Part shown: positions 2,946-26,994 of the stretch, piece by piece
How positions within the stretch are numbered: the first letter of the stretch is position 1
Layout: every line of letters begins with the position of its first letter
Origin: a virus
DNA: 26,994 bases
IMG/VR virus record: IMGVR_UViG_3300010970_000093
Coordinates: 1-26,994 of that record
Strand: one strand, 5' to 3'
Program-made: the position numbers and the translations under genes
The notes under the pieces: generated by a model
What the model was told of the DNA's origin: nothing
The model's input: the letters and a program-made list of their open reading frames with translations, nothing else
Databases searched by the model: none

Positions 2946-3290
2946 ATGGACATTACAAATTTCGTAAAAAAACCCCAACTAATGGAAGTAGCTATCAATG
3001 ATGCAGATATCATTGAGACTTATGGTGAGGAAGTAAAATTCTACATGAAGGATCATCTTGATCTCGACACATATTTCGACTTCTATAGATATCAACAAGA
3101 ATCTAGCAGTGAACAACTTATGTCCACTCTACGTAAAATCATTTTAAAACAAGACGGATCCAAAGCTATTGCTGATGAGGAAGTGTTACCTCTTGATTTA
3201 ACATTGGCTGTTTTAGTAAAGGTAAATGAAAATTTGGGAAAGTCCGGAACCAAGAAGTCAGAGAATCAAACTGGGACACATCAAGACTAA
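2946..3290 (+). CDS. Tail assembly chaperone (gpG-like)
   Basis: 114-aa acidic protein between the major tail gene and the tape measure. It contains the slippery heptamer near its 3' end. Confidence 0.8.
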   Translation: MDITNFVKKPQLMEVAINDADIIETYGEEVKFYMKDHLDLDTYFDFYRYQQESSSEQLMSTLRKIILKQDGSKAIADEEVLPLDLTLAVLVKVNENLGKSGTKKSENQTGTHQD

Positions 3291-3478
3291 TAACAATCGG
3301 AACGTTGGCTAGACATTATCGCAAACTTCCAAGTGAGATAGTAGAGCAAGCAACAACGTTCGATGTTATGGTTATGGATGTCATGACTACTTGGGAAAAT
3401 TACCAAAGAGATCCTCAGAATGAAACGAATTATAAAACTGAAGACCTCGAAGAATTAGTTAAAAGGACAAAAGGATGA
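2946..3478 (+). CDS. Tail assembly chaperone frameshift product (gpGT-like), join(2946..3241,3241..3478), 177 aa
   Basis: The -1 frame is open from 3230 to TGA 3476-3478. It encodes ...LARHYRKLPSEIVEQATTFDVMVMDVMTTWENYQRDPQNE... The frames are joined at GGGAAAG. Confidence 0.75.
3236..3242 (+). promoter_or_regulatory. Programmed -1 ribosomal frameshift slippery site G GGA AAG
   Basis: X XXY YYZ heptamer in the zero frame of gpG (codons GGA 3237, AAG 3240). The same heptamer is used by lambda G/GT. Confidence 0.75.
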
Positions 3479-6921: not shown

Positions 6922-7512
6922 ATGTCTATCAGTATTCCAGCATTAGATTCAACAAACATCAAGCATTGTTTGTTAATTGATCTACAGGTCAATACTACTA
7001 CCTACTATATCAGCAATGCCTATGCTCCAATTACTTACAATGGTCATTCCTACACACAGTTAGGTCACATGGTTAACCTAGGTGAAATGCAGGATGACTT
7101 GAAGATTACCAACAATCAATTAAGTTTATCACTAAGTGGCATTCCACCTGATGACGGCAGTCCTAACTATATGTCTGTTGTTTTAAACAGCAACATCAAG
7201 GGCAGTAAGATACAGATTTATCGTGCATTCTTCGATACCAGCACAGGCTTCTACAATCCCTCGCAGGTATACTTACGCTTCAGTGGTTATGTTTCTAATT
7301 ACAGTTTAAGTGAAAACTGGGATCAGGAAAATAAACTTGCCTCCAACAACATTGGCATTCAATGTTCCAGCATTATCGGCATCATGGAGAAGCAATACAC
7401 AGGACGTAGAACCAATGACAATGATCAGCAATTCTGGTATCCAGGTGATACTGGCATGTATAAGGTCAAGGCATTGAGTGATGCACAGTTCGACTTTGGA
7501 AAGCCAGTCTAA
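6922..7512 (+). CDS. Tail hub protein (gpL / DUF2163-like)
   Basis: The N-terminal pattern CLLIDLQVNTTTYYISNAYAPITYNGHSYTQLGHMVNLGEMQDDL resembles the conserved 'x-F-T-x-x-D-x-x-I-x-W-x-G-x-x-Y-x-x-x-G' core of lambda-L/GTA-g13-type hub proteins. The position fits. Confidence 0.55.
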   Translation: MSISIPALDSTNIKHCLLIDLQVNTTTYYISNAYAPITYNGHSYTQLGHMVNLGEMQDDLKITNNQLSLSLSGIPPDDGSPNYMSVVLNSNIKGSKIQIYRAFFDTSTGFYNPSQVYLRFSGYVSNYSLSENWDQENKLASNNIGIQCSSIIGIMEKQYTGRRTNDNDQQFWYPGDTGMYKVKALSDAQFDFGKPV

Positions 7513-7961
7513 TGATTAGACAAGCCGTTCCTGATGATACAATGGTTGTAGTTGCATTGTTGAGAAAGTTCCTTGGTGAGACAAGTTACAGTCAAGCTGA
7601 AGAAGCTGCCAAGGACTTAGAACACCTTTGCAAGATTGTTTGGACATGCTTTCAATATGGTTACATTTGGTTAGCATACGCAGATGAACAACCAGTGGGC
7701 GTGTTAATGAGCATTAAGGAACCGAACATGTGGTATCCTAAGGCTAAAGAATTAAGAGAAATAGTTTGGTATGTAACACCCGAACAGAGAAAGAATAGTA
7801 TCGGTGGTAAGTTGTTCTTAAGTTATTGTAAGAAGGGCGACGAGTTAATGAAGATAGGAGCAATCCAAGGTTACTTCACAACACAAATGACCACAACAGA
7901 TACAATTGACTTGGAGCGTAGAGGCTTTAAGTTAAAAGAAAGAACATATTTAAAGGATTAA
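7512..7961 (+). CDS. GNAT-family N-acetyltransferase-like protein
   Basis: 149 aa. Beta4/alpha3 segment IVWYVTPEQRKNSIGGKLFLSY aligns with the V-x-P-x-x-R-G-x-G-I-G-x-x-L acetyl-CoA loop, with G replaced by S at one position. C-terminal LERRGFK matches the typical GNAT ending. Confidence 0.55.
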   Translation: MIRQAVPDDTMVVVALLRKFLGETSYSQAEEAAKDLEHLCKIVWTCFQYGYIWLAYADEQPVGVLMSIKEPNMWYPKAKELREIVWYVTPEQRKNSIGGKLFLSYCKKGDELMKIGAIQGYFTTQMTTTDTIDLERRGFKLKERTYLKD

Positions 7962-7965
7962 GATT

Positions 7966-9870
7966 ATGCCAGCATTTACCGCAGCAGCAGGTTATATTGT
8001 TGCAGAATATTTAGGTGGAGTTGTTTTAGCTGCCGCCATTGGCAGTGCAGGTATTGCCTTTGTAACTTCTGTTATTGCCGTTGGTCTAGCATTAGCCACA
8101 GCACGTTTGTTAGGTTTAACAGGTGGTGGCGCAGGCGGAACAGCACAGGATCCAGGTGTGCGTATTCAGTTACCGCCTGCCACTAACAATAAAGTTCCTG
8201 TAGTTTATGGACACGCAAACACCAAGGGTGTAATCACTGATGCTCGCATTAGCAACAGCAACAAGACCATGACTTATGTTATTGTGTTGTCTGAAGTTAC
8301 ACAAACAGGCACATTCAGCATTGGCAACATTTACTGGAACGATCAACAATTAGTATTCAAGACAGATGCAGGCAGTGAACACATTGTTGGCAGCAGCATT
8401 GACCAAAACGGTTTAGGCACAAGCAATACAAACTTCGATGGATTGATCCGCATTCGCGTATATTCGGGTAACGTAAACAGTGGAAGTCAGATCTTTCCTC
8501 CACAGGCAACAACTAACACTGTCAATGCTAGAACAACGCTTGATGAATCAGACACAAATTATGTAATGAACAACCTAGTGTTTGCAGTTATTCAGATTGA
8601 TTACAACAGCAGCAAAGGCATTACCGGACTTGGGCAAATGACTTTCGAAGTTACAAACAGCTTGAAGAATCCCGCAAGTGTTTGGTATGACTACATGACA
8701 TCACCACGTTATGGTGCTAACATTCCTACTTCTCAGATCAATACATCTACAAGTATCAGCACAGCAAACACAATGAGTTTATATAATTGGTCGGAAACTA
8801 TTCCACCTAATCAATATCTTGCTGACGGAGTTACCACAAGCACACAGGTTCGCTATGAACTAAACGGTGTTATCTCAGCTGGCGAGAACGTTAAGAACAA
8901 CATTGAAAAGATCAGCGTGGGATGTAATTGCTGGACCTCATTCGATTACAACAGAGGACAGTGGAAGATCATTTCCAACCGTGCTGCCACTACCAGCGAA
9001 TTAGCAGATGCATTTGTATTCAATGACGATAACATCATTGGTGAGATTGGCATTACTGCAACCAACTTGGAAGACTTATATAACTTGTTAGAAGTTGAAT
9101 TTGCAAGTCGTAAGATTCGCGATCAGAATGACTACTATCGTGGGGCAATTGCTGATTCTGAAATGAACGACTTAGAACCAGCTAACACACTAGGCTTTCG
9201 TTTAGATCTAGCCAACAATGCACTACATTGTGCTCGTGTTGGATTGATTGAATTGAAGGGAAGTCGTGTTGATTTAATCATTACATTCCGTTCTGACTAC
9301 TCAGCACTACAATGTGAAGCAGGTGACGTTGTTAAAGTTACCAATGATGTATATGGCTTTGCGGACAAACTATTCCGCATATCTAAGATACGTGAAGTTG
9401 AAGATGACAGTGGTAGCATTACTTGTGAGATTACTGCATTGGAATATAGTGCAGGTGTATACGATGATGAAATATTAGTGGACAGTCCTGACACTCCGGG
9501 TTCAGGTATTCCAGTGTTCGGCGGCAGTGCAACATTGCCTGCACCAAGCACACCTACAGTGACTACAATCTCCACAACTACACCTAGCTTTAGATTGTCA
9601 ACAACTATTGCCACAGGCAGTAGCCCAGTGGATGAAGTTCAATGGTGGTATAACACAACCAGCACAGGTAGCTTTACATATCTAACCAATGAATACAATT
9701 CAACAGGTGGATTTATTGCAGGTGACGTTGTTATTGACACAGTGACAATTCCAGCATCGGGCACATTCTACTTTAGAGCTAGAACAGGTGCAAGCACACA
9801 ATATAGCGAGTTTAGTCCGTCGACTACAACAGGATTCAATTGGAATCCTAACGACTACGGCGGCATTTAA
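7966..9870 (+). CDS. Tail tip / central fibre protein (gpI-gpJ-like, host specificity)
   Basis: Hydrophobic Gly/Ala-rich N-terminus, then VPVVYGHANTKGVITDA as in J-type proteins. There is an FN3-like Thr/Ser-rich C-terminal domain. It follows the hub genes. Confidence 0.65.
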   Translation: MPAFTAAAGYIVAEYLGGVVLAAAIGSAGIAFVTSVIAVGLALATARLLGLTGGGAGGTAQDPGVRIQLPPATNNKVPVVYGHANTKGVITDARISNSNKTMTYVIVLSEVTQTGTFSIGNIYWNDQQLVFKTDAGSEHIVGSSIDQNGLGTSNTNFDGLIRIRVYSGNVNSGSQIFPPQATTNTVNARTTLDESDTNYVMNNLVFAVIQIDYNSSKGITGLGQMTFEVTNSLKNPASVWYDYMTSPRYGANIPTSQINTSTSISTANTMSLYNWSETIPPNQYLADGVTTSTQVRYELNGVISAGENVKNNIEKISVGCNCWTSFDYNRGQWKIISNRAATTSELADAFVFNDDNIIGEIGITATNLEDLYNLLEVEFASRKIRDQNDYYRGAIADSEMNDLEPANTLGFRLDLANNALHCARVGLIELKGSRVDLIITFRSDYSALQCEAGDVVKVTNDVYGFADKLFRISKIREVEDDSGSITCEITALEYSAGVYDDEILVDSPDTPGSGIPVFGGSATLPAPSTPTVTTISTTTPSFRLSTTIATGSSPVDEVQWWYNTTSTGSFTYLTNEYNSTGGFIAGDVVIDTVTIPASGTFYFRARTGASTQYSEFSPSTTTGFNWNPNDYGGI

Positions 9871-14861: not shown

Positions 14862-16490
14862 ATGGCTTTACAAATTAGACGCGGCACTAACGCAGAAAGA
14901 TTAACAATTACTCCCCTAGAAGGCGAGTTAATATTTTGCACCGACACACAAGAGTTGTGGATTGGTGATGGCACGACAGTAGGTGGTGTTGAGGTCAGTG
15001 AAGACCAAAACCTAGGTCCTACTAGCGATGTAACCTTTAACAAGATTGACATCACCACAACTGGCACATTCAACAATGTTATCACAAACAGCCTTAAGGT
15101 TAATTACTGGGGTGACATTACATACGTTCGTTCTAGCTATATGCGTGGTATCACAGGTACTAACGTTGTCATTGAAAACGGCAGCAACGTCGGTGGTAAG
15201 ATTGAACTTAATGATGGTGAAGGCGCAGGTGTTACTCTTTCAGCTAACAGTGAAACCATAGTTGCAACATTCAACACAGCCACTTCAGAAATCAAGAGCG
15301 ACACAGTTAATATTAAGTCTAACTCGGGCACACAGCGCTTGGCAATTGCCAATGGTTATGTAAGAAACGACACTAACACATTGTTTGGCAGTGCTTCGGG
15401 CAGTGATGCTTTCATTACTACCAACGCACTAGGTGACGACCTTTGGTTGCAAACAGGTGCAACTGGCGCAGTTGCAGGACTTGGTGGTAAGATTGCAGTT
15501 AAGTCTGGATCACTAGCAGGTGTTGACATTTACGCTGACAGCAATCAATTGGTTGCAGAATTCAGCACAGGCACAACAAAGATCAGCAGCTATTTAGAAG
15601 TTGATGGTAATGTCATGCCACACACTGCAAGTCTTGACTTGGGTAGTGCAGAAAATCCATGGCGTGGTGTTTACACCAAAGGTTTAAGAATGTTAGCCGA
15701 CGATGGCACATATGGACATATCTTTGGTCCACGTGGAGACCAAAGCTGGAGCACTGCTAACATTGAATTCCGTGCAAGCAGCAGCACTGACGAAGTAAAA
15801 ATCTATGCTTACAACACTGCCACAAGTGCTGCAAGTTATGTTTGGGTTAAGAACAACGCTGTAGAACTTTCAGCCAATGGTAATACTGCTTCTTTGGGAG
15901 CTGATGGTAACTTCCAAGCTACTAGAATCTCAGCCAGTGGCGGAGATGCTACCTATGCAAGTTTTACATCAGTTGGTGGAAACGTAGACGTAGAACCAGA
16001 TGGCTTCCCAGAGTATCATCACTTCTTAGAAGCAGGATGTTACAATCAAGATTCCAGTGACATTTTAAGCAAGCACTTCCGTGTAAACAACACAGGTACA
16101 CTACAAATTACCAATGATGCCAATGATACAGTTATCATGTCATTGACTGACAGTGGTGTTCTACAAACCAAAGGCTTTGCTGAAACAGTTTATGATCTAG
16201 GCACAGGCAGTGGTACTATTAACCCAGATGCAAACAGCGCAACAATCTTCAAGTTAACCTTAAATGGTAACTGGACATTGAGCTCTATTGCTAATGCAGT
16301 CACTGGCACTAACGCAACTATCCTTGTCAAGCAAGATGGCACAGGTGGACGCACATTAACAACTTCCACAGGTTGGTTGTTTGCAGGTGGTGCTAAGACA
16401 TTAACAACATCGCCAAACGCAGTTGACATGATCAACACATTCTATGATGGCACAAACTATTATGCCAGCTTATCAAGAGGATTCCTATAA
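14862..16490 (+). CDS. Tail fibre protein with Mtd_N-type N-terminus
   Basis: N-terminal MALQIRRGTNAERLTITPLEGELIFCTDTQELWIGDGTTVGG is the widespread fibre N-terminal motif seen in BPP-1 Mtd and HylP-type proteins. The body is Gly/Ser/Thr-rich. Confidence 0.75.
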   Translation: MALQIRRGTNAERLTITPLEGELIFCTDTQELWIGDGTTVGGVEVSEDQNLGPTSDVTFNKIDITTTGTFNNVITNSLKVNYWGDITYVRSSYMRGITGTNVVIENGSNVGGKIELNDGEGAGVTLSANSETIVATFNTATSEIKSDTVNIKSNSGTQRLAIANGYVRNDTNTLFGSASGSDAFITTNALGDDLWLQTGATGAVAGLGGKIAVKSGSLAGVDIYADSNQLVAEFSTGTTKISSYLEVDGNVMPHTASLDLGSAENPWRGVYTKGLRMLADDGTYGHIFGPRGDQSWSTANIEFRASSSTDEVKIYAYNTATSAASYVWVKNNAVELSANGNTASLGADGNFQATRISASGGDATYASFTSVGGNVDVEPDGFPEYHHFLEAGCYNQDSSDILSKHFRVNNTGTLQITNDANDTVIMSLTDSGVLQTKGFAETVYDLGTGSGTINPDANSATIFKLTLNGNWTLSSIANAVTGTNATILVKQDGTGGRTLTTSTGWLFAGGAKTLTTSPNAVDMINTFYDGTNYYASLSRGFL

Positions 16491-17530
16491 TGAGTCGCAG
16501 AGTAGGCTTAGTAAGAGGCGACCCTACGGTTGCCTGGGGGCATGCCACCACCCCCTATTTGTCTCTATATAAACAAAACTCTAACGACACTACCAGTACC
16601 TTTGTTAAATTAACAGGTACTGTTCCTGTGCCGGGAACGAGTTGGGTAACTGGAACAGACTGGAGTCCTTGCGGAAACTATGTTGCAGTATCTATCAACG
16701 CCACACCTTGGTTTGCAGTATATCAACGTGATGGTGATAAGTTCAGTGCCAACCTAATAAGTCCAGCACCATTTTCAAGTGGTAACAGCTATGGAGTATG
16801 TTGGAGTCCAGATGGAAAGTATGTCACAGTTCTTTCTACAGTAAGTCCTTACGTTGCTACCTATAAGCGAGCAGGCAACACATTTACTAAAATTGGTAAT
16901 CCAGGAACTGCACTTAGTGGAGCAGCTGGCGGAGTTGCATGGAGTCCAGATGGAAAGTCATTGGCATTTGGCTTAACAGCTAGCCCATGGATTAACATCT
17001 ATAACTTCAATCCTGATACTGACACTTATACAAAATTAAGTCAGCCAGCAACAGCACCCACAGCAACTTGCTTGTCAGTAAGTTGGACAGTTGATGGAAC
17101 TAGATTGGCAGTTGGCTATCAAGCTACACCATTCATGATTCACTATGCTAGAAGTGGAAATACATTTACTGCGGGCACAGTCTCCGGCACTGGTCCAAGC
17201 ACATCTGCCTATGTAGACTTCTCCCCAGACGGAACACAATTGGCAGCAGGTAGCAACACCACTCCATACATACGGTTATACAACCTAAGTGGAACAGTGG
17301 CAACTAATGCTAACATGACTATTTCGGGATCTAACCCGGGTGCCTCTATTAACGGAGGAATCACTTGGAGTGCAGATGGCAAGTATCTTGCCGCGGGAGT
17401 ATATCTATCACCGTACTTCTGTGTGTTGAAAAAGACCGGTGCAGCTACAATGACTAGAGTCACTAACCCAACAACATTGCCAACAGGCAACTCCAATGCC
17501 AAACCAACTTGGTGGCCTAAGAAATATTAA
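16490..17530 (+). CDS. PD40/TolB-like beta-propeller repeat protein (6-7 blades)
   Basis: Six units of about 46 aa carry W/F-S-P/A-D/C-G-x-x-L/V-A: WSPCGNYVAV, WSPDGKYVTV, WSPDGKSLAF, WTVDGTRLAV, FSPDGTQLAA, WSADGKYLAA. Each is followed by T/S-P-Y/W/F. Confidence 0.8.
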   Translation: MSRRVGLVRGDPTVAWGHATTPYLSLYKQNSNDTTSTFVKLTGTVPVPGTSWVTGTDWSPCGNYVAVSINATPWFAVYQRDGDKFSANLISPAPFSSGNSYGVCWSPDGKYVTVLSTVSPYVATYKRAGNTFTKIGNPGTALSGAAGGVAWSPDGKSLAFGLTASPWINIYNFNPDTDTYTKLSQPATAPTATCLSVSWTVDGTRLAVGYQATPFMIHYARSGNTFTAGTVSGTGPSTSAYVDFSPDGTQLAAGSNTTPYIRLYNLSGTVATNANMTISGSNPGASINGGITWSADGKYLAAGVYLSPYFCVLKKTGAATMTRVTNPTTLPTGNSNAKPTWWPKKY

Positions 17531-18179: not shown

Positions 18180-18440
18180 ATGGAACCTACACTATTCACT
18201 AACCTAATCAAGGACTTGGGGCGATTCGAAACTAGATTCAAGGGCACACACGCAAGTGATGCACCCGAGGATCTAGTTTTTAAAGTAAAAGAACATGAGC
18301 CCGAATGCCCAAACTGTTTCGACGGTCTGGGACGTCAGGTCATGATTGAAAAGAAACAAGATATTAAATTTAGAACTTATTGGCGAATTAAGTGCAAATT
18401 TTGTCGTGCATTTAACCGCGTAAATCACCCAATTAGTTGA
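18180..18440 (+). CDS. Zinc-ribbon protein (CPNC...CKFC)
   Basis: 86 aa with two CxxC pairs. There is no SD. The start codon lies in the 3' arm of a perfect 7-bp inverted repeat (18161-18167/18176-18182). Confidence 0.55.
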   Translation: MEPTLFTNLIKDLGRFETRFKGTHASDAPEDLVFKVKEHEPECPNCFDGLGRQVMIEKKQDIKFRTYWRIKCKFCRAFNRVNHPIS

Positions 18441-18465
18441 CTATTTTTTAGAATTATGTTTAAAT
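18437..18465 (+). promoter_or_regulatory. Candidate sigma70-type promoter TTGACT-17-TTAAAT
   Basis: -35 at 18437-18442 overlaps the TGA of the Zn-ribbon ORF. -10 at 18460-18465. Predicted TSS near 18472. Confidence 0.4.
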
Positions 18466-18471
18466 AGTATT

Positions 18472-18668
18472 AAGAACAGTGTTAGGCCATCACATAACGC
18501 CATTTGTGAATCCTTAATCTGATTACCCATTCCTAACATTGTTCTGCTTATCATTGCGTCTAACACCCTATATTAGATGGATTTTTTGTTTACAGCGCGG
18601 CAATGCTATTCACCAAAACCAATGATAAGTCGAGAAGCTCCTGATGCAATGTCCGGGGCTTTTCTTTT
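18472..18668 (+). ncRNA. Candidate ~200-nt structured sRNA (promoter-to-terminator unit)
   Basis: 14-bp helix 18473-18486/18532-18545 (one G:U) encloses hairpin 18490-18494/18505-18509. 10-bp helix 18547-18556/18620-18629 encloses 18559-18563/18573-18577. It ends in the terminator at 18635-18668. No ORF. Confidence 0.45.
18635..18668 (+). terminator. Intrinsic terminator inside the non-coding block
   Basis: AAGCTCC (18635-18641) pairs with GGGGCTT (18655-18661), one G:U, 13-nt loop, then TTTTCTTTT. The 3' half GGGCTTTTCTTTTGG is identical to the terminator at 22885-22899. Confidence 0.55.
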
Positions 18669-18683
18669 GGCGGAAATAATCCC

Positions 18684-18712
18684 TTTACAATACCCTTTTA
18701 TTTGTCTATACT
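18684..18712 (+). promoter_or_regulatory. Strong sigma70-type promoter TTTACA-17-TATACT (probable early promoter)
   Basis: -35 at 18684-18689, exact 17-nt spacer, -10 at 18707-18712, with an AT-rich AAATAAT element upstream. Predicted TSS near 18719. Confidence 0.6.
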
Positions 18713-18796
18713 AAATAACTGTAGCTTTGCCGCAAACAAAAAATCTGTTAATTCGGATTTTAATTTGCGGCATGCTATGTTATATAGCACAAGGTT

Positions 18797-18846
18797 GACG
18801 GGCCGTTTAATCATACCGTTAGTGAATCCGTTCTGATGTGTGACGG
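18797..18846. repeat. Cluster of short CCGTT / GACGG repeats (iteron-like)
   Basis: GACGG at 18797 and 18842 flank three CCGTT copies at 18803, 18816 and 18828 (spacing 13 and 12 nt). Further GACGG copies occur at 18900 and 19136. Confidence 0.35.
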
Positions 18847-18940
18847 CAGCTAGATCCAATCGCTATAATTGGGCTTTTATGCACTACCCTTCGCTCTGCG
18901 ACGGATGCCTTAAATTAAACACGCTTGGCGTGCCACTAAT

Positions 18941-18971
18941 TTGCATAATCGGAATGGTTGAAATATATAAT
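18941..18971 (+). promoter_or_regulatory. Candidate internal promoter TTGCAT-17-TATATA (or 19-nt spacer to TATAAT)
   Basis: -35 at 18941-18946; -10 at 18964-18969 or 18966-18971. Confidence 0.3.
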
Positions 18972-19330
18972 TTCTTAATTAATCTATGGAACACTTAATG
19001 CATAGCAAACAGTGACCATTCTGTAATGTAGTCAATAAAGCACCTGAGAAGACTACTTAAAAATCCTTGTAAGTTGGGTAAGGAAGAGAGCCCATAACAG
19101 AAGTCCATAGTAAACAAAATCTTACTGTTCGACGCGACGGCAATAGCCCGCAAGTTTAGAGCATCACTCGAAGGAGTGGTGCTCTGGCTCTTGCAATGGA
19201 TGTCAATGACTTTACTTCATTACGAGTTTCAATTAAACTTAAAAGAAAGAAGTAATTGCTATAAAAACAAAATACGAGTTAGCGAGTGTTTTGTTTATGT
19301 AGTGATTAGAACTTAGTAAGATCTTATACT

Positions 19331-19531
19331 ATGAAATATACTAAACAAGAAACAGATGCTTGGAAAATCGGATTAAAGATTAGAGGAATAAAATCTAATA
19401 AGCGTAGGTCTGAACATCTTCCAAGTCCTATATTAATTGTCAATGCCCTAACTGGTGAACGAACAGAGGTTAAGCCAGTGACATATAAACCTACAGTAAA
19501 GAAACGTAAGTCTAAAAAGAAGTCAAAATAA
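19331..19531 (+). CDS. Small basic protein (66 aa, C-terminal KKRKSKKKSK)
   Basis: First ORF after the non-coding block. No clear SD. A TATACT hexamer abuts the ATG. Confidence 0.45.
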   Translation: MKYTKQETDAWKIGLKIRGIKSNKRRSEHLPSPILIVNALTGERTEVKPVTYKPTVKKRKSKKKSK

Positions 19532-26671: not shown

Positions 26672-26994
26672 ATGTCAGACAATACATTGGCTAACGAAGA
26701 TACTGGATCTTCTGAAACAAACCAGGCACAGTCAGTAAAAACTTACACGCAAGAGGAAGTTGATAATATGATGGCTCGCACCAAAGGTGCTATCCAAAAG
26801 AAATATGAAAAGACTTTTGCAGAACTAGGTGATATTGACGAACTACGTCAACTCAAGGTAGAAGCAGAATCACGCAAATTGGAAGACCAAAAGAAGCGTG
26901 GTGAATACGATAGAATTATCGCAGAGCTAGCTGCTAAGAAAGACGACGAAATTCGCAAACGTGATGAGATTATTAAGTCTTACACTGTGGACAT
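26672..26994 (+). CDS. Scaffolding-like protein, N-terminal part (runs off the window end and continues at nt 56-401)
   Basis: ATG at 26672 with AAAGG upstream. The frame is open to the end of the window: MSDNTLANEDTGSSETNQAQSVKTYTQEEVDNMMARTKGAIQKKYEKTFAELGDIDELRQLKVEAESRKLEDQKKRGEYDRIIAELAAKKDDEIRKRDEIIKSYTVD. Confidence 0.7.
   Translation, partial: MSDNTLANEDTGSSETNQAQSVKTYTQEEVDNMMARTKGAIQKKYEKTFAELGDIDELRQLKVEAESRKLEDQKKRGEYDRIIAELAAKKDDEIRKRDEIIKSYTVD
26940..26994. repeat. Second copy of the 55-nt terminal overlap
   Basis: Identical to nt 1-55. Confidence 0.9.

Follow-up and report, generated by a model that had tools for sequence, protein, structure and literature searches.

The largest gap between genes in a complete siphovirus-type genome, recorded in IMG/VR as IMGVR_UViG_3300010970_000093 and analysed here over its full 26,994 nucleotides (nt; the window), very probably houses a real structured RNA related to Polynucleobacter-1 (Rfam family RF01718). 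The core of this RNA, ~340 nt, folds into two domains, and compensatory substitutions across dozens of unrelated phage contigs keep their helices paired. We propose that the stretch from ~18720 to ~19300 would be the gene for a large structured non-coding RNA with its own promoter and a terminator-like hairpin at its end, and that the RNA would act in trans as a stable folded molecule instead of regulating a neighbouring gene in cis. Weighed together, the kinship and the trans-acting mode make up what we regard as the likely explanation of the locus; the mode itself, a scaffold or a binder, is a tentative proposal that draws on analogy. An earlier note on this DNA had suggested that the block at 18441-19330, which lacks open reading frames (ORFs), is the locus of a large structured phage non-coding RNA, and this central idea is borne out by covariation in both the 5' and the 3' domain.

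For the 5' domain we compared 41 sequences, dereplicated at 92% identity, with controls in which pairing partners were shuffled (500 times) or slid by 1-3 columns, and checked the window's own pairs base by base. The 28 pairs of six helices are 96.1% paired, against 73.6% after shuffling and 28-46% after sliding; double changes occur in 24 of them, giving 263 double-change cells where 76 are expected, and none of the 500 shuffles was as good on any measure. All seven pairs of the long-range helix P4 covary, and the stem of P2a occurs as CCGU/ACGG, CCGC/GCGG, CCAU/AUGG, GGU/ACC, CCCA/UGGG and GCA/UGC around a loop, UCUGAUGUGUG, that stays fixed, as read from loci that had been retrieved with patterns other than the 26-nt stretch described below. 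The conserved strands of the domain are AAGGUUG, CACUACC, GGAUGCCUUAAA, UUUG and AUCGGAAUGGUU. A kink-turn in the conserved loop was considered and rejected, since the A that would have to be sheared behaves in covariation like a Watson-Crick partner (U-A to A-U and C-G).

Downstream of this domain lies a second one, in which the 15 pairs of helices S1-S3 are 97.1% paired, against 64.6% in shuffled and 37-52% in slid controls, with double changes in 13 of the 15. The outer helix S0, the pseudoknot and the tail hairpins were misaligned by MAFFT, and were hence assessed by folding each sequence separately or by comparing the duplex energies of a sequence's own strands with those of permuted ones. 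For S0 the own energy is -122.1 against -72.2 +/- 7.7 for permuted strands, and none of 2000 permutations was as good. The pseudoknot joins the 5' part of the S3 loop to the conserved strand AAAnACCUAYUGUC, and both sides change together, as in GUAAG/CUUAC in the window, GAUAGGU/ACCUAUC in locus L002 (loci and contigs are given as L numbers), GCAGGU/ACCUGC in L015, GUUGU/ACAAC in L048 and ACAGUA/UACUGU in L139; the own energies sum to -174.3 against -147.1 +/- 8.0, again with none of 2000 permutations as good. A helix closing the whole RNA, between AAGGU at the 5' end and ACCU at the 3' end, was discarded, for the 3' segment pairs with the S3 loop instead. The GGG/CCC combination at 19076-78 and 19091-93 is invariant across sequences, and the conserved unpaired strands of the domain are CACCUGAGAAG, CUUAAAAAUC, GGGUAAGG and GAGCCCA.

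Beyond the core, the tail was compared in nine loci whose homology extends that far. At the site of tail hairpin 1, 10 of 10 homologues form a hairpin from other stem sequences; as no U-run follows, it does not qualify as a terminator. Tail hairpin 2 (T2) recurs in about 7 of 10; its arms covary around a conserved GAGY...AGCGA loop, and we infer that it is the terminator of the RNA. Several of these elements had been listed as helices in the earlier note, of which P4, S0 (by the permutation test), S2 (which covaries) and the stems 19159-69/19174-84 and 19265-72/19289-96 of the two tail hairpins are upheld. The long-range pairing of 18819-24 with 18934-39 is not supported, 18816-20 being the 3' strand of P1, the helix 18773-78/18784-89 found no support, and the leader-hairpin helices at 18728-18772 proved to be lineage-specific. 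The positions of all features are collected in the table.

Features of the block and its RNA gene, with positions in the window (T1, intrinsic terminator; bp, base pairs; aa, amino acids)
Feature	Position	Strand	Remarks
Weak promoter-like site TTGACT-17-TTAAAT	18437-18465	+	overlaps stop codon of the 86-aa gene
Upstream hairpin A, 14-bp stem 18473-86/18532-45, conserved 45-nt loop CAUAACGCCAUUUG...AUCCUUAAUC	18473-18545	+	inverted repeat, pairs verified
Upstream hairpin B, 10-bp stem 18547-56/18620-29 around conserved UUGUUU...GCGCGGCAAUG	18547-18629	+	arms 100% complementary
T1, stem 18636-41/18655-60, then UUUUCUUUU	18636-18668	+	read from sequence
Predicted RNA-gene promoter TTTACA-17-TATACT (18684-18712), overlapping ACTAAATA element (18710-17)	18684-18717	+	10/12 match
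Leader hairpin, 18728-36/18764-72 and 18740-45/18756-61	18728-18772	+	pairs verified; absent in L004
5' domain, Polynucleobacter-1-like core	18789-18960	+	model R1 153.8 bits, E about 1e-39
P1	18797-801/18816-20
P2	18821-23/18849-51
P2a	18828-31/18843-46		conserved 11-nt loop UCUGAUGUGUG
P3	18855-60/18868-73
P4	18877-83/18942-48		long range, encloses P5 and P6
P5	18888-94/18898-904
P6	18920-24/18928-32
Linker hairpin GAAAU/AUUUC	18960-18974	+	pairs verified; lineage-specific, GAAGU/ACUUC in L105
3' domain	18984-19125	+	four nested helices and pseudoknot
S0	18984-90/19104-10		outer closing helix
S0a	18992-95/19011-14
S1	19020-24/19097-101
S2	19028-33/19051-56
S3	19064-68/19084-89
Pseudoknot GUAAG/CUUAC	19069-73/19121-25
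Tail hairpin 1, 11-bp stem 19159-69/19174-84 closed by 19150-54/19190-94, then UGGCUC	19150-19194	+
Tail hairpin 2 (T2), A-rich arm, stem 19265-75/19286-96, conserved inner loop GAGUUAGCGAG, U-rich arm, UUUAU	19253-19308	+	putative terminator of the RNA
Promoter-like segment for downstream genes, GTGATT-17-TATACT (-10 at 19319-24)	19296-19330	+	abuts ATG 19331

Polynucleobacter-1 was described from 16 examples with no function given, its 3' half was not always detected, no example came from purified phage, and in genomes it directly follows a GOS11034-family gene (Weinberg et al. 2010, PMC2864571). In the literature that we searched only this original description discusses the motif. When the window was searched with the 4227 models of Rfam 15 there was no match at gathering thresholds; at E <= 10 the region 18300-19450 gave five chance-level matches, all far below the thresholds of their families, and RF01718 (gathering threshold 37 bits) gave none at E <= 10 in this region, even in a search confined to 261 nt (18740-19000). 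The homologues of the window's RNA that we collected fall by profile search into a long form, homologous to the window from ~18780 to ~19100-19330, a mid form, homologous only to ~18965, and a classic form, to which the majority of loci belong. The classic loci are recognised by Rfam as RF01718 at 67-81 bits, and no long or mid form tested reaches the threshold of that family. We then searched in the reciprocal direction with R1, a covariance model built from 41 long- and mid-form sequences and from no classic member. R1 finds each classic locus over its full length, at the coordinates given by Rfam and with 37-59 bits, part of which derives from a common 21-mer, GAATCCGTTCTGATGTGTGAC; it also finds loci without the 21-mer, namely L126, L127, L132, L135 and L136, at E of about 1e-4 to 1e-5, and in L126, L135 and L136 a classic-type 5' domain is joined to the 3' domain.

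The link to Polynucleobacter-1 follows from this reciprocal covariance-model search, the common 21-mer and the same helix layout. The window and RF01718 have an identical 26-nt stretch, GUGAAUCCGUUCUGAUGUGUGACGGC, and the same order of elements: a 5' hairpin with a GCC-containing loop, a hairpin with a UCUGAUGUGUG-type loop, a third hairpin and then a long-range helix that encloses CACUAYCC-hairpin-GGAYG and a further hairpin, followed by UUUG. Both occur in freshwater settings, with hints of Burkholderiales-type hosts and an upstream CUAAAUA element. The features of the RF01718 5' half, a 5' hairpin and a conserved-loop hairpin, are present and covarying in the window as P1, P2 and P2a, and its long-range helix corresponds to P4 with P5 and P6 inside. 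Unlike in the seed, P5 and P6 are larger in the window, and the window adds a ~140-nt pseudoknotted 3' domain and two tail hairpins, for a predicted transcript of ~580 nt in place of 141. The contexts differ as well: the classic RNA trails a GIY-YIG gene, whose family we assume to be GOS11034, whereas the window has no GIY-YIG gene and its RNA follows a terminator and a promoter of its own. On these sequence comparisons the 5' domain is a divergent, enlarged homologue of Polynucleobacter-1 beyond the reach of the curated model, and it is only a minority long form of the family that adds the 3' domain and tail hairpins. The earlier note's suggestion of an undescribed RNA class thus does not hold for the 5' domain; for the 3' domain, which is without a counterpart in Rfam, and for the pseudoknot and the tail, we came across no earlier description in the literature and Rfam.

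The homologues needed for this comparison, which the earlier note had proposed to collect from related intergenic regions and to examine for covariation, could be found, and helices are compensated across more than 40 diverged sequences. The 133-aa protein encoded downstream served as an anchor, and through it we reached a related lineage (L002, L003 and L004, which have one and the same sequence in the region), in which an ORF-free block of ~883 nt lies at the same position with 68% identity over 611 nt; the protein at 16490-17530, used likewise, recovered no relatives. In L005 (8758-9947), a more distant relative, the slot between the homologues of the 86-aa and 133-aa genes holds two ORFs of 240 and 156 aa, which have no Pfam or PHROG match and no tblastn similarity to the block; since these two ORFs are unrelated to it, the RNA block behaves as a replaceable cassette. 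The exact 21-mer (18824-18844) occurs in 114 IMG/VR contigs of 4 kb to 356 kb, a scan with a 3'-domain pattern gave 33 viral contigs, 21 of them new, and a loop-plus-junction pattern gave at least 119, of which at least 79 were new. Altogether the family spans more than 200 IMG/VR viral contigs, from 27-kb siphoviruses to jumbo phages. Among bacterial genomes sampled at one per species the 21-mer is confined to four contigs of freshwater metagenome-assembled genomes, one of them from Limnohabitans. In about 10 of 46 whole-contig loci, roughly twice the expectation, the motif lies less than 500 nt from a contig end (e.g. L008, L013, L022, L028 and L032, and further L041, L050, L058, L074 and L077), for which assembly breaks at an element common to co-occurring phages are the likeliest cause.

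We examined the gene neighbourhoods of these loci. The classic loci form one syntenic lineage, with an SbcD-like gene, an SbcC-like gene, an 84-aa gene and a SegE-type GIY-YIG gene preceding the RNA, which starts a few tens of nt past the GIY-YIG stop codon and is often followed by a convergent gene (35 loci). The GIY-YIG protein has 141 aa and matches PF19835 at E = 2e-31; in L023 its ORF ends 56 nt before the 21-mer, and the same SegE-type family adjoins mid-form RNAs in L009 and L033, in two other arrangements. The long- and mid-form loci have diverse neighbours on either strand, with no protein family common across contexts, and the downstream gene is convergent also in L057, L087 and L115. 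In three loci the RNA lies on the same strand as an adjacent Betaproteobacteria-type phage transfer-messenger RNA (tmRNA) gene: L120 (tmRNA 2967-3366, RNA 2605-2899), L128 (2656-3125) and L119 (5802-6139). Arrays of transfer RNA (tRNA) genes occur near the RNA in L119 (201-1713) and L136 (114-3843); proximity to tRNA genes as a general feature was rejected, as it holds in only a few large-phage loci.

The RNA appears to be an independent transcription unit, because it is preceded by T1 and a predicted promoter, because upstream elements are enriched across the family, and because T2 is followed by a new promoter-like segment. The promoter at 18684-18712, named in the earlier note, was recovered by our scan as the best match of the region, and the L004 lineage keeps TTTACA-17-TATTAT; over 17-21 kb as a whole the scan found 10 promoter-like sites where 11.2 are expected, that is, no excess over chance. 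In a set of 42 long- and mid-form loci, 43% have a sigma70-like promoter in the 150 nt upstream of the RNA and 31% have a [CT]TAAATA element, the corresponding shares of control windows being 17% (p = 7e-5) and 4.4% (p = 2e-8); a CTAAATA-type element also precedes Rfam seed members, including the Polynucleobacter genome copy. Downstream of the RNA, the 45 nt at 19286-19330 are ~97% identical to L004, where the neighbouring 133-aa protein is merely 61% identical, and TTGAT-type -35 and -10 elements occur also in L060, L048 and L046. As the -10 element abuts ATG 19331, we speculate that it yields a leaderless mRNA for a basic protein of 66 aa. A further promoter-like match inside the RNA, GTGACG-18-TATAAT (10/12) at 18840-18869, overlaps P2a and P3 and probably reflects the conserved GCUAUAAU loop of P3, not a promoter. 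In other loci tandem WAGGCA boxes, spaced ~10-12 nt, lie between the -10-like element and the RNA core (L139, about 9330-9420, and L009, L046, L048, L061, L086, L113, L120, L121, L128, L131, L133, L134 and L136), with four copies of CATAGGCAAA in L139. UAGGCA and UUAAGGCA are complementary to the conserved AUGCCUA and to the UGCCUUAA junction of the 5' domain; the window is without such boxes.

The block as a whole, which the earlier note had treated as one 890-nt RNA locus, is composite: ~230 nt at its 5' end form a separate terminator-capped unit, distinct from the large RNA, and the promoter and the ~580-nt RNA gene follow. The first 230 nt can be compared in two lineages, since a viral scan for relatives of this unit returned the L004 lineage alone and a metagenome scan with a lineage-specific 22-mer returned none. 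In L004 all three of its stems differ and remain complementary, with loops conserved: hairpin A has GGGUAGGG/CCCUACC in place of its stem, hairpin B has UGUUAG/CUAACA, and T1 reads ACCCAC/GUGGGU followed by UUUUCUUUU. The two hairpins and the internal terminator (18635-18668), which had all been noted earlier, are thereby confirmed as compensated in the single other lineage available. Our terminator scan missed T1 because its loop measures 13 nt. Folding of 18466-18672 gives z = -3.4 on the + strand and -0.5 on the - strand. We read 18466-18668 as what would be the structured 3' end of the late operon closed by T1, or possibly a separate small RNA. The site at 18437-18465, proposed as a second sigma70-like promoter, fails the -10 criterion of the scan and is ~80% conserved in L005, which is without the RNA; it is probably not part of the RNA gene.

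That the block is ORF-free, as originally described, stands. Its longest ORF on either strand has 53 aa, each of the six frames contains 19-32 stop codons (18300-19450), and two independent gene callers left the same gap empty in identical contigs. At 890 nt it is the largest gap of the genome, the runner-up having 387 nt. A recoded or decayed gene was rejected, as ignoring any one stop codon opens at most 159 codons, in scattered frames. Base composition had been described as coding-like, and is near to but not identical with that of genes: the late genes have a GC of 0.40-0.47 and the block one of 0.36-0.40, with a reversal in the sign of the AT skew. By blastn, including a distant mode, the block has no DNA similarity to GenBank phages; ARAGORN and Rfam find no tRNA or tmRNA gene in the window; and a search of the block for iterons and tandem repeats gave only short chance-level ones.

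Several points weigh against the proposal of a trans-acting RNA gene. The promoter, the transcript ends and the stability of the RNA are predictions. Most loci were retrieved by exact patterns, which inflates the apparent invariance of the motifs, and kinship among sequences inflates the shuffle statistics. The pseudoknot of the window itself has only 5 bp and is no better than cross-pairings. In ~85% of long- and mid-form loci the gene that follows shares the RNA's orientation, so that the RNA often heads an operon, as would suit a cis leader, and the role as a trans-acting scaffold or binder was selected by elimination and analogy. Finally, both conserved domains are thermodynamically unexceptional, with z near 0 each. 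The folding test against shuffled sequence that the earlier note had called for is passed by the block as a whole, which folds better than its dinucleotide shuffles (z = -6.3 on the + strand, -3.4 on the - strand), but not by these domains. The predicted transcript, 18720-19300, has z = -6.3, against a mean of -1.9 (range -0.3 to -4.6) in ten coding segments of the same length, and the tail 19131-19300 has z = -4.7; the energy signal stems from the peripheral hairpins and not from the conserved core. The dense hairpins once taken to mark the locus are there, but they are not what marks its core, and energy-based scans would miss that core because of its z near 0.

Among other explanations, a cis-acting leader, already raised as an alternative in the earlier note, comes closest, in that it would control the downstream operon (66-aa gene, HNH, terS/terL) either by modifying RNA polymerase for a put-like read-through of T2 or as a riboswitch-like sensor. 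The order of promoter, RNA, hairpin and genes in the window suits it, as do the co-oriented next gene in most long- and mid-form loci and the often divergent upstream genes; yet the downstream genes come from many unrelated families, they are convergent in the classic lineage and in the three further loci named above, and a separate conserved promoter follows T2. Moreover, ~340 nt with a pseudoknot far exceeds the known antitermination RNAs. Because contexts vary in this way, in family as well as in orientation, we disfavour both such a leader, which we consider improbable, and a dedicated protein partner encoded next door. Trans action is preferred over cis on the same varied flanking families and orientations, together with the same-strand placement beside tmRNA and tRNA genes and the cassette-like behaviour of the block. 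Less probable still is a host-dependent replication origin whose transcript primes or activates DNA synthesis in the manner of ColE1 RNA II or the T4 origin transcripts. The genome is complete and has no detectable replication protein, the block is its largest non-coding region, the cumulative GC skew dips to a shallow local minimum at 18-20 kb, and the WAGGCA boxes beside the RNA in other loci are iteron-like. The same RNA, however, sits at quite different positions in jumbo and T4-like contigs, which bring replication and recombination genes of their own, the window lacks iterons and an AT-rich unwinding element, the skew is confounded by all genes lying on one strand, and the covariation reflects selection on pairing of RNA or single strands, not on duplex protein-binding sites.

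The patchy spread over unrelated phages could also point to a mobile or catalytic RNA, such as a remnant or ORF-less self-splicing intron, a self-cleaving ribozyme or the RNA of a homing-endonuclease cassette. A SegE-type GIY-YIG gene stands directly upstream in the classic lineage and adjoins the RNA in L009 and L033, and an HNH gene lies 0.7 kb downstream in the window. Against this, Rfam's intron and ribozyme models give no match even at E <= 10, the ORFs on either side are complete, unsplit and as long as their homologues, a nuclease gene within 3 kb is absent from most long-form loci, and the CUGAUG of the conserved loop on inspection misfits the hammerhead core, as the motif is inside a hairpin loop and A9 is absent; we regard this explanation as very improbable. 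A spacer without function, a decayed gene with chance hairpins, or a template repeat (TR) of a diversity-generating retroelement (DGR) is extremely improbable. The two ORFs in the slot of L005 might hint at a decayed gene, but their products have no similarity to the block, in which stops are dense in every frame. The 542-aa tail protein (14862-16490) carries an Mtd_N domain, the major tropism determinant domain of DGR phages; yet there is no pair of template and variable repeats, the only repeat of the genome being its 55-nt terminal overlap, and no reverse transcriptase among the ORFs tested. Helices conserved and compensated in more than 40 diverged sequences effectively refute the spacer.

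Returning to the RNA acting in trans, we posit that the unpaired UCUGAUGUGUG loop and the strands GGAUGCCUUAAA, CUUAAAAAUC, GGGUAAGG and GAGCCCA would be presented to a conserved partner of host or phage; alternatively, they would contact further molecules of this RNA, as in ROOL and GOLLD. These are phage and prophage RNAs of unknown function, often near tRNA islands, that form RNA-only cages (Kretsch et al. 2025, PMC12286853). Like them the present RNA is large, pseudoknotted and phage-encoded, has no evident dedicated protein partner and in some large phages stands beside tRNA or tmRNA genes; as in GOLLD, one domain is universal and one facultative, the universal one being 3' in GOLLD and 5' here. 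Unlike in them, the conserved core has ~340 nt instead of ~580-800 nt. Both had been named for comparison with this locus, and neither model matches the sequence or structure, nor does any covariance model of OLE, HEARO and other large Rfam RNAs. The put-type RNAs of HK022 measure ~70 nt, consist of two stem-loops and, as far as is known, always act in cis ahead of early operons. They resemble the present locus in having RNA structure after a promoter and before a terminator-like hairpin and an operon, but the present RNA is ~5x larger and has convergent downstream genes in some contexts.

A bolder and distinctly less likely proposal is that the long form constitutes an unrecognised class of large ornate phage RNA, widespread in freshwater phages of 27 kb to more than 300 kb, with a two-domain, pseudoknotted core of ~340 nt, a ~580-nt transcript and the 141-nt motif as no more than its 5' module. 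Such a class might have a biochemical role of its own, as an RNA-only assembly like ROOL and GOLLD, as a ribozyme, or as a mimic that captures a host component of translation or RNA repair, the last being suggested by the phage tmRNA and tRNA genes that the RNA adjoins. In any case the Polynucleobacter-1 motif, an orphan since 2010, now becomes the 5' module of a larger modular RNA, and its family is overwhelmingly phage-borne, widespread among freshwater phages and across very different phage types. A phage of 26.9 kb devotes 2-3% of its genome to this RNA. Large RNAs so structured have historically turned out to be ribozymes, riboswitches or scaffolds of ribonucleoproteins and, lately, RNA nanocages; the long form is thus a concrete new candidate for structural and functional work. 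A word of caution concerns annotation, as no part of the long and mid subfamily is picked up by the Rfam model now in use.

The genome that carries the RNA is a complete circular assembly of ~26.9 kb, with an exact terminal direct repeat of 55 nt (1-55 and 26940-26994), and a 26,968-nt contig from an independent assembly and a Joint Genome Institute (JGI) contig are 100% identical to it. It has no close cultured phage, its TerL being at most 52% identical to anything in the collection, and no gene recognisable as one for replication, integration or a repressor. All genes lie on the + strand in a siphovirus-type layout, with the major capsid protein, tape measure, tail proteins, a holin-like gene and the 86-aa zinc-ribbon-like gene preceding the block, and small genes, the 66-aa gene first, HNH, terS, terL and portal 3' of it. 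Within the tail module a 149-aa protein (7512-7961) resembles GNAT acetyltransferases, and the 346-aa protein at 16490-17530, among the tail-fibre genes, is a WD40/PD40 beta-propeller.

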